Origin: a phage
Reading direction: 5' to 3' (one strand)
Length of the DNA stretch: 21,685 bases
NCBI GenBank assembly: GCA_037431425.1
Contig: GCA_037431425.1_4129.5
The position numbers were made by a program, and so were the translations under genes. Within the stretch, counting starts at the first letter, position 1. Each line of letters begins with the position of its first letter. The notes beneath the pieces are model-generated. The model was not told the DNA's origin. It was given only the letters and a program-made list of their open reading frames with translations, and searched no databases. Below, one piece after another: positions 1,247 to 6,600 of this stretch.

Positions 1247-1579
1247 ATGCTAAATCTAAACATTCAAGGCAACATTGATATCACTCCAGCAATCCAAGAT
1301 GCTATTTACAATGAAGCAAAAAGTCTGGATAAGTACCGTACTTCTTCAGTACTAGACATTGGTGTTCATGTTAAGAAAGAGCATAAAACTCAATATGCTG
1401 TAACTTTAACTGCTGGTAGTAAATCAGTGACTGCTGATGATGCTGATTTGTATAAAGCAATTGTTGAATCTTTTGATAAGATGGAAACTGTATTCAGTAA
1501 AGACAAAAGCATTAAATTGCACCGCCGAAACCACCCAGAACATCCAGTTCTTGATGATTTGACAGAAAACGAAGAGTAA
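1247..1579 (+). CDS. hpf: ribosome hibernation promoting factor / RaiA family protein (short HPF)
   Basis: 110 aa; aligns along its length with E. coli HPF (MxLNIxGNxxxITxAxxxxxxxxxxKLxxY ... VxLxxE ... AxL ... DxYxAI ... KxK). SD-like AGGTAGG lies 5-11 nt upstream of ATG 1247. Confidence 0.8.
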   Translation: MLNLNIQGNIDITPAIQDAIYNEAKSLDKYRTSSVLDIGVHVKKEHKTQYAVTLTAGSKSVTADDADLYKAIVESFDKMETVFSKDKSIKLHRRNHPEHPVLDDLTENEE

Positions 1580-1590
1580 TGTATACTAAA

Positions 1591-1618
1591 GGGACAGATT
1601 AATTCTGCCCCTTTTCTT
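1591..1618 (+). terminator. putative intrinsic terminator
   Basis: GGGaCAGA / TCTGcCCC imperfect stem (one mismatch), 5-nt loop, followed by TTTTCTT. Directly downstream of the HPF stop. Confidence 0.4.
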
Positions 1619-1632
1619 ATGGAGTTTTAATT

Positions 1633-2028
1633 ATGAATTGTTCCTGGATGGAAATTGTAAAATCTCTAATATCAACACATGATATGGACTTACCTGAACA
1701 CCTAGTTATTAATAGATGGTACTATCCATATCCAGATAACCGTTGTGTTGGAATTGGATTTTTTATTAATGAAAAATCTCAATATATTGTATTAATTGAA
1801 GATTATACAAAAACCAATATTGCGTTCTCAATTGAGTTGAATGTAGATCACATAAAATACTACACCAATAAAATGGATGAAGACGATGGTGATGTTATAA
1901 TTCCAGCAGAAATAGACGAAGCTTCATTTTTTCAGTTATCATTAATTCATAATGTATCTGATATTACTTATGATAATGTGAAAGACCTTTTTATATTGTA
2001 CAATAAACTGTATAATTACTTTATATGA
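1633..2028 (+). CDS. hypothetical protein (small acidic, early-region type)
   Basis: 131-aa ORF with GGAG 7 nt upstream. C-terminal acidic/aromatic region loosely resembles the downstream small ORFs. Confidence 0.55.
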   Translation: MNCSWMEIVKSLISTHDMDLPEHLVINRWYYPYPDNRCVGIGFFINEKSQYIVLIEDYTKTNIAFSIELNVDHIKYYTNKMDEDDGDVIIPAEIDEASFFQLSLIHNVSDITYDNVKDLFILYNKLYNYFI

Positions 2029-2040
2029 TTGAGGTGTAAG

Positions 2041-2412
2041 TTGAGAAATACATTAATTAAAGTTAATTTATCACATTTCGACCCATATCAGAAATATGAA
2101 GAAAGTCGAAGATATAATATTAATGAATATTTCACAATATATTTCAATAGAACATATAGCATGATCATCATTACTATTTGTAATCATATAAAAATTTGTA
2201 TAACAAAAGACACAATAACTTTATACATTCAAGGCAAAGAAACTGATATTCCAACAGATTTGGATGAAGATGGATATGCTCAAGACGAATTCTTGAGAGA
2301 TCACTTGTTGATTGAGTACAGCACTTATGCATTGATTAATTTCTACAAAGTAAATTACATTAAGTGGTTGTCTGGTGAATGTGATGATGGTATAATAGAG
2401 TATAATATATAA
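2041..2412 (+). CDS. hypothetical protein
   Basis: ORF track 2029..2412 (TTG start). A TTG at 2041 has GAGG (2031-2034) 6 nt upstream; ATG 2161 is an alternative. Start uncertain. Confidence 0.35.
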   Translation: MRNTLIKVNLSHFDPYQKYEESRRYNINEYFTIYFNRTYSMIIITICNHIKICITKDTITLYIQGKETDIPTDLDEDGYAQDEFLRDHLLIEYSTYALINFYKVNYIKWLSGECDDGIIEYNI

Positions 2413-2423
2413 TGAATACAATT

Positions 2424-2537
2424 ATGCTTGAAGAAGATTTGGGTGTTTATTAACAAGAAATCGACGTGAACAAAGAACCAAAATACAAGCCTAATGGCTT
2501 CTGGGAACGTCTCTTTGATTGGCTGATGGGGGAGTGA
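2424..2537 (+). repeat. copy A of a duplicated ~110-bp cassette (small ORF interrupted by in-frame TAA)
   Basis: Shares GAAGAAGATTnGGGTGTTT, an identical 17-mer GGCTTCTGGGAACGTCT (2496-2512) and GATTGGyTGATGGGGGA with copy B at 3556-3669. Encodes MLEEDLGVY-stop-QEIDVNKEPKYKPNGFWERLFDWLMGE. Its 3' end supplies the G-rich SD of the next gene. Confidence 0.6.
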
Positions 2538-2722
2538 TGGAATATACAATATGTGCTATTATTTGTATCTTAGCTTTAATCGGTGGTGTTGGTGTGATGG
2601 TTTATTGTGATGCAGAACCCAGTAATGAAGTAGGTACAACCATCACATTTAAACCTGGTGTTAAAATTAATGATACCTATTGCTACAATCCAAACACAAA
2701 CCGCTATGAGATTTGTTTATGA
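2537..2722 (+). CDS. small Cys-rich membrane protein (hypothetical)
   Basis: ORF track 2519..2722. ATG 2537 follows GGGGGAG (2528-2534). Predicted TM helix (ICAIICILALIGGVGVMVY) plus four further Cys. Confidence 0.4.
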   Translation: MEYTICAIICILALIGGVGVMVYCDAEPSNEVGTTITFKPGVKINDTYCYNPNTNRYEICL

Positions 2723-3126
2723 GAACATTCAACATTGTTCATATAATTGAACCGATTGCAGAACATATGAAAAACATAAGTAATAACGAGTCAGGTTTTT
2801 ACTTCAATTTAGATAAACTTCATCGTTATACCAATGTATCTAGTTTTAATCGTGCTAAGAGACTTTATATCCGTATACACAACCTATGGTACAGTGATGA
2901 TACGTTGATGATAGATATCACTGTTGATGAAGACATAAAATTAAGATATATTGACGATTTTAAATCAGATGATATTCGTTCTGGTTCATTACCAATTGAT
3001 GCTTCATATGAAGAATATCTGCAATATCAGTTCATTGATGACACATTTGGCTTTGACTTTGAACTATATAATAGTATAATGAACGTATACCATATATATG
3101 AAAGGCATTTGAATGGACATTCGTAA
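2719..3126 (+). CDS. hypothetical protein, tandem paralogue 1
   Basis: ORF track 2713..3126. ATG 2719 overlaps the upstream stop as ATGA. C-terminus YQFIDDTFGFDFELYNSIMNVYHIYERHL is paralogous to the next ORF. Confidence 0.55.
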   Translation: MRTFNIVHIIEPIAEHMKNISNNESGFYFNLDKLHRYTNVSSFNRAKRLYIRIHNLWYSDDTLMIDITVDEDIKLRYIDDFKSDDIRSGSLPIDASYEEYLQYQFIDDTFGFDFELYNSIMNVYHIYERHLNGHS

Positions 3127-5291: not shown

Positions 5292-5292
5292 C

Positions 5293-5541
5293 ATGAAAGT
5301 TAAAATTTATGGTCGAAAGACTGGTTGTAAATTTTGCGATACAGCTAAAGCTGTGTGTGAACAAAATAATTTTGATATGGAGTTCATTGATATTGTTGCT
5401 GAAGGGATTGATGGTGCTAAACTATCAGAAATTTGTGGTGAACCTGTGCGTCAAGTTCCACAGATTTTCGTGAATGATGTTTATGTACCTGGTGGTTGTA
5501 CTGGATTTATCAACGGACTCAAAGAAGGTCATTGGAAATAA
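5293..5541 (+). CDS. glutaredoxin (T4 NrdC / NrdH-like redoxin)
   Basis: 82 aa; CKFC active-site motif near the N-terminus (KIYGRKTGCKFCDTAK), glutaredoxin-fold motifs (VPQIFVND..VPGGCTGF). AGGAAA SD. Confidence 0.8.
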   Translation: MKVKIYGRKTGCKFCDTAKAVCEQNNFDMEFIDIVAEGIDGAKLSEICGEPVRQVPQIFVNDVYVPGGCTGFINGLKEGHWK

Positions 5542-5783
5542 TGGATATTGAAAAGGTATCATCTCGTGCAAAACATCTAGCTGATACATTGGGAGTTGAG
5601 TTTAAAATTCCTGATATTACAATAGCTAAAGAAAAAGCCCATAAGAAAATCAATAAGATGAAAGAATATCTATCTAAACAGGAACAATATGATTCTGCTG
5701 TAGAATTTATTATACAATCTTTTAGTAAAGATGATATTAAAGCATTCATCCAATATGTGAAGGTTTCTGATAACCCTAAATAA
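5541..5783 (+). CDS. hypothetical protein
   Basis: ORF track 5496..5783. ATG 5541 overlaps the glutaredoxin stop (TAATG), suggesting translational coupling. 80 aa, no motif recognised. Confidence 0.5.
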   Translation: MDIEKVSSRAKHLADTLGVEFKIPDITIAKEKAHKKINKMKEYLSKQEQYDSAVEFIIQSFSKDDIKAFIQYVKVSDNPK

Positions 5784-5785
5784 TC

Positions 5786-5807
5786 ATGAAGAACAAAAGT
5801 TCTTCAT
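5786..5807 (+). other. perfect 9-bp stem-loop without U-tract (possible RNA processing/stability element)
   Basis: ATGAAGAAC-AAAA-GTTCTTCAT immediately after the stop at 5783. No T-run follows, so not a classical intrinsic terminator. Confidence 0.4.
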
Positions 5808-5828
5808 AACAATTTGGGAGATACTATT

Positions 5829-6071
5829 ATGCTCAGTTTTCGTGAACAATTAGCAAAAGGTCAATTTCAGGCTAAAGCTCAAACTAACATTCCAAAAAAA
5901 TCTGCTTTTTTGGGAACAATTACGGAAGATGGATATTGTGATTATGATGCACCAGAGGACTCATGGTACATCACAAAAGACACAAAACGCAGTAATAGAC
6001 TTCACAAAAGTACAATAGCTAGAAAGCATCGAAAAGAATTGAAAAAAATCCGTTTCGGTGAAGAAGAATAA
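5829..6071 (+). CDS. hypothetical protein (basic C-terminus)
   Basis: ORF track 5814..6071. ATG 5829 lies 8 nt after GGGAG (5816-5820). Confidence 0.5.
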   Translation: MLSFREQLAKGQFQAKAQTNIPKKSAFLGTITEDGYCDYDAPEDSWYITKDTKRSNRLHKSTIARKHRKELKKIRFGEEE

Positions 6072-6080
6072 TTTAAAATA

Positions 6081-6110
6081 AGGACTCTGACTATAGAGTC
6101 CTTTCTTTTC
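6081..6110 (+). terminator. intrinsic terminator
   Basis: AGGACTCT-GACTAT-AGAGTCCT perfect 8-bp stem followed by TTCTTTTC. Followed by GGAG and ATG 6121. Confidence 0.7.
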
Positions 6111-6120
6111 GGAGAACATA

Positions 6121-6600
6121 ATGATTCATGAACACAGAGGTAATCTGTTTGAATTATTCAGTACTGTTACTACTGATCAAACTGCATTACATATTATCGC
6201 TCATGGTTGTAACGCTCAGGGTAAGATGGGTTCTGGCTTTGCAAAAGAATTAAGAAAGCGTCACCAATTGGCATATGATGTGTATCATACACGTTATACC
6301 AATCAGAATGGTTTGAAATTGGGTGAAGTTGTCTATGCAGCACCAAATAATAACTTAATTATTGCAAACTGCATTACACAAGAGTATTATGGTAATGATG
6401 GTAAGAAGTATGTAAGTTATGATGCGATTGACCTTGCATTTAACTCGATGAATGAATTCATTAAAAATGAACCACAAGAGATCCATGTACACTTCCCGAA
6501 AATTGGAGCCGATTTAGGCGGTGGTAACTGGAACGTTATCAAAGAAATCATTGACCACAGACTGGTTAATGCAGAAAAACACTTATACATTCTAAAATAA
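6121..6600 (+). CDS. macro-domain-like protein (putative ADP-ribose binding/processing)
   Basis: 159 aa; N-terminal HIIAHGCNAQGKMGSGFAKEL resembles the glycine-rich ADP-ribose-binding loop region of macro-like domains. Assignment by motif only. Confidence 0.45.
   Translation: MIHEHRGNLFELFSTVTTDQTALHIIAHGCNAQGKMGSGFAKELRKRHQLAYDVYHTRYTNQNGLKLGEVVYAAPNNNLIIANCITQEYYGNDGKKYVSYDAIDLAFNSMNEFIKNEPQEIHVHFPKIGADLGGGNWNVIKEIIDHRLVNAEKHLYILK

Follow-up and report, generated by a model that had tools for sequence, protein, structure and literature searches.

Positions 1247 to 6600 of a 21,685-nucleotide stretch of phage DNA (contig GCA_037431425.1_4129.5 of assembly GCA_037431425.1; the whole stretch is referred to below as the window) bring together genes for a ribosome hibernation factor (HPF), a CCA-adding tRNA nucleotidyltransferase, a Nudix hydrolase, a glutaredoxin and a macrodomain protein, and they raise the question of whether these genes act in concert as a counter-defence island, as the original prediction proposed, or share a neighbourhood for other reasons. 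The five genes and the small open reading frames (ORFs) interleaved with them were found on the + strand at about the positions first assigned to them, bracketed by a lysozyme gene and a gp13-like neck gene (Table 1), and searches of the window ORFs with Pfam, PHROGs, NCBIfam, PADLOC and PDB sequences upheld all five identities. As argued below, the block is probably a lineage-specific, vertically inherited set of auxiliary genes of RaK2/121Q-like jumbo myoviruses, partly homologous to the nrdC-tk.4-e-nudE region of T4, serving parallel functions and divided among several transcription units. The gene identities, the synteny, the frame switch, the cassette exchange and the tRNA 3' ends described below are direct results, whereas all biochemical activities and biological targets are predicted.

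By megablast, region 1247-6600 was assigned to an Asteriusvirus with 97.5% nucleotide identity to Escherichia phage ph0011; 37 further 121Q/PBECO4-like jumbo phages matched it at 80-90%, and 29 records, all of them annotated, covered at least 80% of the region. The block is annotated in more than 30 GenBank records, and because tRNA nucleotidyltransferase, Nudix hydrolase, S30AE/HPF, glutaredoxin and macrodomain genes are marked here in nearly all of the matching phages, the gene content is not new. As first described, the block is an ordinary, clade-typical and annotated auxiliary set, and it would be wrong to list it as a new island of defence evasion; the parts of most value are an unannotated +1 frameshift in the Nudix gene and the exchange of a macrodomain cassette.

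Gene order is kept within one phage clade

The order CCA-Nudix-glutaredoxin-o80-o85-macrodomain-o105-o125-neck (o125 being the Pth2-like gene) was conserved in 18 of 18 IMG/VR loci from RaK2/GAP32/121Q-like phages, and annotated phages of Yersinia, Salmonella, Cronobacter and Klebsiella show it too. The lysozyme gene lies 5' of the block in 17 of these clade loci, the remaining one being on a contig that ends before that position. HPF is present in 11 of the 18 and missing from 7, with RaK2/K64-1-type loci lacking it, and the lysozyme-CCA interval holds variable genes across the clade. Within this clade the block does travel as a unit, and to that extent the clustering is real. In contrast, when the 8 kb on either side of the CCA gene were scanned with iterated hidden Markov models in 62 non-clade viral contigs, Nudix genes were found near 4 of the CCA genes, glutaredoxin near 7, a macrodomain near 4 and HPF near none, and no locus had more than one partner family in this range. 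No partner genes surrounded the CCA gene in four annotated distant phages, and in phi-ST2 the macrodomain and CCA genes are ~74 kb apart.

The block did not look like a single transcription unit. Terminator-like hairpins with U-runs are predicted 3' of HPF and 5' of the macrodomain gene, and promoter-like sites are predicted between gene groups.

Four block genes have homologues in the T4 region nrdC-tk-tk.4-vs-e-nudE(e.1)-tRNA cluster-gene 1 (lysozyme e, 6.4e-10; NudE, 7.6e-17; NrdC, 1e-4; Tk.4, 5.6e-12), with thymidine kinase, tRNA-related functions and dNMP kinase nearby, as in ph0011, and the lysozyme-NudE linkage in phages was noted before by Iyer et al. (PMC9503650). The four T4 counterparts, however, are non-contiguous and spread over ~27 kb, with ~6 kb between the macrodomain and Nudix genes; genes for HPF, a CCA enzyme and a Pth2-like protein are lacking there, and T4 nudE is a plain ORF without a frameshift. 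Taken together, the order kept throughout the clade, its absence around the 62 other CCA genes, the dividing hairpins and the T4 homologues indicate that the block is an inherited synteny of auxiliary genes that arose once, and not one module or a recurrent functional cassette.

The Nudix gene changes frame at a conserved site

The annotated Nudix ORF (4890/4893-5291) turned out to be a truncated call, the gene starting at ATG 4859, in another frame. The Nudix gene originally noted is present with an intact Nudix box (GX5EX7REUXEEXGU; residues G31-Y53 of the restored protein, GKAEGNETFKEAAVRECYEETGY; Pfam NUDIX, 1.6e-12), but the ORF model given for it does not hold, and a +1 shift at 4922 is required. 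No uninterrupted ORF spans the Nudix fold, and a 1-nucleotide insertion at 4922 parts the first β-strand, in frame A, from the rest of the protein. Outgroups have intact orthologues of 141-145 residues; those of K64-1, Yen9-04, SE_PL, EJP2 and GAP32 have 141-143 residues and the N-terminal sequence MRYTCGIIFYRDGQILIGHTTGQ.HWDLPKG. The N terminus encoded from ATG 4859 is one base out of frame with the remainder in each of the seven distinct core Asteriusvirus sequences; the extra C yields ACA ACA C GGA, and ACA ACA CGG ACA, the first 12 of the 13 bases compared there, is invariant among the seven.

Upstream of the shift, variable sites were synonymous to nonsynonymous in a ratio of 7:1 in frame A versus 1:7 in the annotated frame (Fisher p 0.01), and downstream the ratio was 18:11 in frame B versus 6:22 in frame A (Fisher p 0.003). 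Purifying selection switches frame at the conserved site, from A upstream to B downstream. A Shine-Dalgarno-like AAGAG lies 5' of ATG 4859 and none lies 5' of ATG 4893, an out-of-frame ATG that is also found in the intact outgroup genes, and the segment lost in the annotated protein is the conserved first β-strand common to T4 NudE. More than 40 contigs, falling into four protein clusters, yield truncated ORF calls starting MVRYL..IQHGQ, which excludes a sequencing error. No earlier report of the +1 frameshift was found in two Asteriusvirus genome papers searched for one or in the GenBank annotations, and this conserved feature is unrecorded in the public annotations that we saw.

These data favour, with reasonable likelihood, a full-length trans-frame Nudix protein over a decaying or truncated gene; the NudE-like protein would then be produced only upon a +1 shift at ACA-CGG-A. 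The competing explanation is that the core-Asteriusvirus gene is a pseudogene, or encodes an N-terminally truncated protein from ATG 4893, and that no frameshifting takes place. In its favour, all GenBank records annotate an ORF of 131-136 residues or two fragments, and E. coli has a tRNA that reads CGG. The shift site, moreover, offers no slippery re-pairing in the P site and has no detectable stimulator (no 3' structure, with a downstream fold z of -0.55, and no Shine-Dalgarno-like 5' stimulator, the upstream GGG codon varying among genomes), so that frameshift efficiency could be very low, a point that weighs against the reading preferred here. Nevertheless, the 21 upstream codons under purifying selection in frame A, the position of the AAGAG, the out-of-frame ATG of intact outgroup genes, the conserved β-strand and the insertion, by which the A site beside GGA comes to hold CGG, a joint-rarest codon of the window, in a site type known from glass sponges (PMC5009743), leave a decayed or truncated gene with only a small chance of being the correct explanation.

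Regarding the mechanism of a full-length translation, CGG occurs once in the 5718 codons of the window, and no phage tRNA reading CGG was found among the 13 tRNAs of fEgEco12 and ph0011. A suppressor tRNA that reads a four-base codon was ruled out, all 13 having normal 7-nucleotide anticodon loops. The P site cannot slip here, and the mechanism implied is that a slowly read codon in the A site is decoded out of frame. In glass-sponge mitochondria, +1 frameshifting takes place at a rare CGG_A created by a C inserted 5' of GGA, and it has been interpreted like that of yeast Ty3 (Atkins review, PMC5009743). The phage site resembles the sponge (CGG_A/UGG_A) and Ty3 (GCG_AGU_U) sites in that one C 5' of GGA gives an extremely rare zero-frame CGG, and it differs from them in that the gene is a phage gene read by E. 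coli ribosomes, with no 3' stimulator found. If the shift is real, it would be a rare case of +1 recoding at a sense codon in a phage gene that E. coli ribosomes translate. A metagenome scan with the 15-mer CAYACAACACGGACA, a poorly chosen query, returned 120 chance matches, none of them Nudix-encoding.

T4 NudE.1 hydrolyses ADP-ribose and NAD caps (PMC9503650; bioRxiv 10.1101/2024.04.04.588121), and by analogy the Nudix protein of the block may hydrolyse ADP-ribose, dinucleotides or NAD caps. The glutaredoxin encoded next to it (PF00462, 38.2 versus a cutoff of 22.9; GrxA equivalog NF008401, 1.3e-19, 70.1 bits versus a cutoff of 84) resembles GrxA/T4 NrdC and would be translationally coupled to it. 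A sister lineage encodes both as one fusion protein of 225-227 residues, with divergent linkers, at the corresponding place in the block; such fusions were found in EJP2 (7048-7725 of locus L011) and in at least six protein clusters (P0034, P0039, P0040, P0043, P0046 and P0048; also loci L221-L223). Nudix-glutaredoxin is the only pair of the block for which something other than synteny points to functional coupling, and the recurrent fusions point to a redox-linked Nudix activity undescribed for phage NudE enzymes. It is conceivable, although very doubtful, that the frameshift, at what would be a hungry-codon site, serves as a built-in sensor, the output of Nudix and coupled glutaredoxin rising when decoding by Arg-tRNA(CCG) is slow, as it would be, for example, if host defences or takeover disturbed tRNA pools, which would tie an ADP-ribose/NAD enzyme to the tRNA and ribosome genes.

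A macrodomain allele of recombinant origin

The macrodomain protein falls below the threshold of the Pfam Macro model (0.0032) and matches BT1257 (1.2e-15) and SCO6735 (1.8e-10) in PDB as well as the DarG models of PADLOC (2e-9) and NCBIfam (3e-6; 26.7 bits versus a cutoff of 250), which agrees with the ADP-ribose-removing activity originally predicted for it and places it in the SCO6735/DarG branch. Residues N31, Q87 and I128-G-A-D-L-G-G-G135 align with Asn27, Gln85 and the phosphate-binding loop of SCO6735, and T4 Tk.4 has the same Asn/Gln pair. The protein is thus similar to AdfM, DarG2 and SCO6735 as an ALC1-like macrodomain with the Asn and the phosphate loop, here as an orphan in a jumbo phage, and to SCO6735 and BT1257 in having Gln at the position of the catalytic lysine. 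It differs from AdfM and DarG in lacking that lysine (DarG K80, AdfM K78); with 159 residues, it also has no DarG2 C-terminal DarT-binding domain, the DarG models matching over positions 17-139 of 329-338, and its lineage forms no nucleus. SCO6735 removes DarT-made ADP-ribose from thymidine in DNA, for which Asn27 and Gln85 are needed (PMC9411070), and AdfM, an orphan chimallivirus macrodomain, defeats DarTG2 (PMC13309987).

All other genes are 94-100% identical to their ph0011 counterparts (98-100% except for the 67-residue ORF). The macrodomain is the exception, its protein being 74% identical to that of ph0011 and 99% to that of Turkey3. Compared with Turkey3, the nucleotide sequence shows 6 differences in 6101-6200, 1 in 6201-6300 and 0 in 6301-6600, and the flanks of the gene are ~99-100% identical to ph0011 and 10-20% different from Turkey3. 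The macrodomain ORF is a recently exchanged allele cassette, as would suit an arms-race gene, and this exchange gives the counter-defence idea its strongest support, for one gene only. Because the protein is of the SCO6735/DarG class and its gene is a recombined cassette, an anti-DarT2 role is plausible: the orphan macrodomain may strip ADP-ribose from nucleic acid, most likely from DarT2-modified thymidine, and would then be the one probable counter-defence gene of the block. This makes it a concrete anti-DarT2 candidate, from a T4 Tk.4 family with members in ~2,000 phage genomes. T4 without AdfA and AdfN is still resistant to DarTG2 (PMC11825919), which a Gln-type macrodomain of the Tk.4 family could explain.

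Within the block, the PADLOC matches were to DarG, for the macrodomain, and to a generic model of Nudix proteins; the HPF, CCA, paralogue, o105 and Pth2-like proteins had no match, and the other small ORFs lay outside that scan. Elsewhere in the ph0011 genome (280451-280801) a protein is annotated as WWE-domain-containing; WWE is an ADP-ribose-binding module, and this is possibly another ADP-ribose-related gene.

Genes related to translation and tRNA ends

The CCA enzyme contains a PF01743 PolyA_pol head (1.2e-17) and a PF12627 RNA-binding domain (5e-8), and its GGxxRD, DxD, RRD and EDxxR motifs are complete and invariant in the alignment (G7, G8, R11 and D12; D21 and D23; R91, R92 and D93; E132, D133, P134 and R136). 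The NCBIfam CCA models, NF008137 included, align to residues 1-207 only and all fall below cutoff; CCA models give 270.9 bits versus 86.9 bits for PcnB models, and CCA addition is the predicted specificity. The protein resembles E. coli Cca in its class II head and neck with all catalytic motifs, and it differs in a 160-residue C-terminal region without an HD domain and in being phage-encoded, not borrowed from the host. Neither Pfam nor NCBIfam detected an HD phosphohydrolase domain, which speaks against the multifunctional phosphodiesterase/phosphatase label of some records and means that the enzyme cannot heal cyclic-phosphate ends.

Four of the seven tRNA genes of ph0011 and three of the six of fEgEco12 lack a complete encoded CCA, so that CCA addition is required, as it is for T4 tRNA maturation. 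The enzyme would complete the 3' ends of these phage tRNAs, which appears to be a sufficient ordinary role for it. The rebuilding of damaged tRNA 3' ends that had been proposed is retained in part: trimmed CCA ends may be rebuilt, but an HD healing domain is missing and the ordinary role extends to four of seven tRNAs. One ph0011 tRNA-Ser (3241-3332 of locus L220) carries the unusual anticodon ACU (ARAGORN) and may be a pseudo-tRNA or a modified decoder.

The 110-residue HPF protein matches PF02482 S30AE at 41.4 bits (cutoff 23.7) and ribosome-bound HPFs in PDB at 3.5e-7, and it scores 36.3 versus 40.9 with TIGR00741 and 22.5 and 19.5 versus 125 and 158 with the HPF and RaiA equivalogs; with scores below both equivalog cutoffs, it can be assigned to neither the HPF nor the RaiA subtype. 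As in the short HPF/YfiA (RaiA) of γ-proteobacteria, a single S30AE domain of ~90 residues is followed by a short tail, and the C-terminal dimerisation domain of long HPF is absent; the differences are that this protein is phage-encoded and that its gene lies beside a lysozyme gene. As its family membership suggests, it may be made together with the lysozyme, bind the decoding centre of the 30S subunit and modulate ribosomes. Its homologues are confined to this phage clade, and a literature search for studies of phage-encoded HPF returned nothing relevant. HPF alleles are mosaic, with 99-100% identity to ph0011, SP27 and Sharanji and 77-83% to 121Q, PBECO4 and Turkey3, which makes its divergence faster than that of the CCA and neck genes.

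The product of the Pth2-like gene belongs to the Pth2 fold. It had no Pfam hit and no significant sequence match; a 61%-identical relative carries PF01981, and the profile alignment with PDB 2zv3, which is weak (E 0.39), pairs FGN with IRD. Compared with Pth2 and DUF2000 (Atu0240), an invariant FGNGE appears to replace the DAG motif with its catalytic Asp. Because Asn takes the place of the DAG Asp in this weak profile alignment, hydrolase activity is doubtful, although the protein may act on acylated tRNA.

Functional relationships among the block genes

Several points weigh against regarding the block as an inherited set of separate auxiliary genes. The promoter and terminator calls are consensus matches, and the overall promoter count was not above that of shuffled sequence. 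Gene order kept across genera whose CCA enzymes share 56-67% identity could stem from selection for co-regulation. Relatives have an RNA ligase gene 5' of the lysozyme gene, at a distance of ~1 kb (EJP2-like contigs) to ~3-3.5 kb (GAP32, Yen9-04), and a YqeY/GatB-like gene, absent from this window, lies directly 3' of the glutaredoxin gene in GAP32 and Yen9-04; together, the ligase, YqeY-like, HPF, CCA and Pth2-like genes suggest a denser translation and RNA-repair theme than chance placement would give.

On the strength of that theme, HPF, the CCA enzyme and the Pth2-like protein, with the upstream RNA ligase, could be a core for translation and tRNA-end maintenance, in which the Nudix, glutaredoxin and macrodomain genes are passengers and which would keep ribosomes and acceptor ends usable during takeover, or when toxins attack tRNA 3' ends by trimming, extension, acylation or pyrophosphorylation. 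The three genes lie within 6 kb of one another, and the phage encodes its own tRNAs. This explanation is nevertheless unlikely, given that HPF is absent from RaK2/K64-1-type loci and from the neighbourhood of CCA in the 62 other contigs, that the Pth2-like protein may have no hydrolase activity, and that the sole candidate RNA ligase homologue in ph0011 lies ~10 kb upstream, outside the window.

Even less can be said for the integrated island of the original prediction, whose enzymes would jointly undo the damage done by tRNA-targeting, ADP-ribosylating or NAD-consuming defences: the DarG/SCO6735-like macrodomain, the logical pairing of a macrodomain that removes ADP-ribose with a Nudix enzyme that then degrades it (T4 NudE.1 activity, PMC9503650; bioRxiv 10.1101/2024.04.04.588121), the gene order kept in all clade loci, and the macrodomain allele exchange and variable-copy paralogues, which suggest arms-race pressure, are in its favour, but it is made distinctly improbable by the lack of recurring partner genes around the 62 unrelated CCA genes, the distances that separate macrodomain from Nudix in T4 and from CCA in phi-ST2, the hairpins that part HPF, the Nudix-glutaredoxin group and the macrodomain gene, the dispensability of HPF in seven clade loci, and a CCA enzyme with a sufficient housekeeping role and no healing domain. 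Nothing was found that would link tRNA repair functionally with the removal of ADP-ribose, and what stands of the counter-defence proposal is mainly the macrodomain, as one probable anti-ADP-ribosylation gene.

Other features of the window

Table 1. Features of the lysozyme-neck interval and its upstream promoter-like site (window coordinates)
Feature	Positions	Strand	Evidence and remarks
Perfect sigma-70-type promoter-like site, TTGACA-16-TGcTATAAT, 5' of lysozyme-HPF	159..186	+	Score 12/12; identical in ph0011; consensus match only
LysM + T4-type lysozyme, left block border, T4 e counterpart	271..1230	+	Pfam Phage_lysozyme 3.2e-10; T4 e 6.4e-10
Short HPF/YfiA-type ribosome hibernation factor	1247..1579	+	Pfam S30AE 2.5e-10; 16 nt past lysozyme stop
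Terminator-like hairpin + U-run 3' of HPF	1588..1620	+	-12.8 kcal/mol, z -2.2
131-residue ORF, weak member of tandem paralogues	1633..2028	+	phrog_36582; C-terminal motif shared in alignment
127-residue ORF, weak paralogue	2029..2412	+	Absent from 121Q and A4; blastp to 137-residue ORF, E 0.03
Degenerate copy of 40-residue gene (2430-2533), running into 67-residue predicted membrane ORF (2519-2722)	2430..2722	+	phrog_4189
137-residue paralogue	2713..3126	+	phrog_20693, 1.6e-60; paralogous to 140-residue ORF at 5e-7
140-residue paralogue, β-sheet + helical hairpin	3113..3535	+	phrog_20693; AF2 pLDDT 85
40-residue conserved ORF adjoining CCA start	3547..3669	+	phrog_34272, 3e-31
Class II tRNA nucleotidyltransferase, CCA-adding type, no HD domain	3671..4783	+	Pfam head + RNA-binding domains
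Promoter-like site, extended -10, in CCA-Nudix spacer	4790..4817	+	Consensus match only
NudE-like Nudix hydrolase, 143 residues when restored	4859..5291	+	Frame A 4859-4921 (MRYSCGIIFYRDGQILIGHTT); +1 skips C4922; frame B 4923-5291
Candidate frameshift site, ACA ACA CGG A	4916..4925	+	Zero-frame CGG is joint-rarest codon of window
GrxA-like glutaredoxin, C12-K-F-C15	5293..5541	+	Pfam 1.6e-9; start 1 nt past Nudix stop
80-residue conserved ORF	5541..5783	+	phrog_34640; 18/18 clade loci
Stable 9-bp hairpin, no U-run, between two small conserved ORFs	5786..5807	+	-10.3 kcal/mol, z -5.8
80-residue basic protein, most conserved small ORF of block	5829..6071	+	phrog_15319; 66-71% identity across genera
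Terminator-like hairpin (10 bp) + U-rich tail 5' of macrodomain gene	6080..6110	+	z -3.0
Orphan macrodomain, SCO6735/BT1257 subclass, T4 Tk.4 counterpart	6121..6600	+	N31, Q87, IGADLGGG loop
Recombinant segment	6168..6602	.	115 differences from ph0011; flanks show opposite pattern
~102-residue conserved ORF	6620..6928	+	phrog_527; follows macrodomain gene in all clade loci
Pth2-fold (peptidyl-tRNA hydrolase 2-like) protein	6941..7318	+	Just past end of region 1247-6600
gp13-like neck/head-tail adaptor, right block border	7565..8371	+	phrog_211, 9e-42; PF26809 in relatives

The stretch between HPF and the CCA gene is occupied by a clade-restricted family of tandem paralogues (127-140 residues, 1633-3535), which is present in 1 to 5 copies between lysozyme and CCA in different relatives. 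Segments 2430-2533 and 3562-3665 form a 77% nucleotide repeat in which the duplicate is broken by a stop codon, and the variable paralogue copies and this degenerate 40-residue duplicate suggest segmental duplication between HPF and CCA. The 140-residue paralogue had no informative PDB or BFVD match, its matches being same-clade proteins only, and PDB sequence searches with the 85- and 105-residue proteins gave no match. Across the whole window, no RNA family was found by Rfam, no tRNA by ARAGORN and no match to the T4 late-promoter motif TATAAATA.

Virion packaging of the lysozyme was considered and rejected. Of the two lysozymes predicted in phAPEC6, only Gp241 (95.9 kDa) was detected in the virion proteome (PMC7247149), and the undetected one is presumed to be the homologue of the window lysozyme because the latter has only 319 residues.

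Finally, a 664-residue homing-endonuclease-like ORF (DUF7487, phrog_3339) lies at 8398-10392, with the neck gene on one side and the dNMP kinase region on the other. It is present in ph0011, and a size-matched ORF occupies this place in K64-1; it is absent in 121Q, Turkey3 and A4, and it looks like a mobile insertion.

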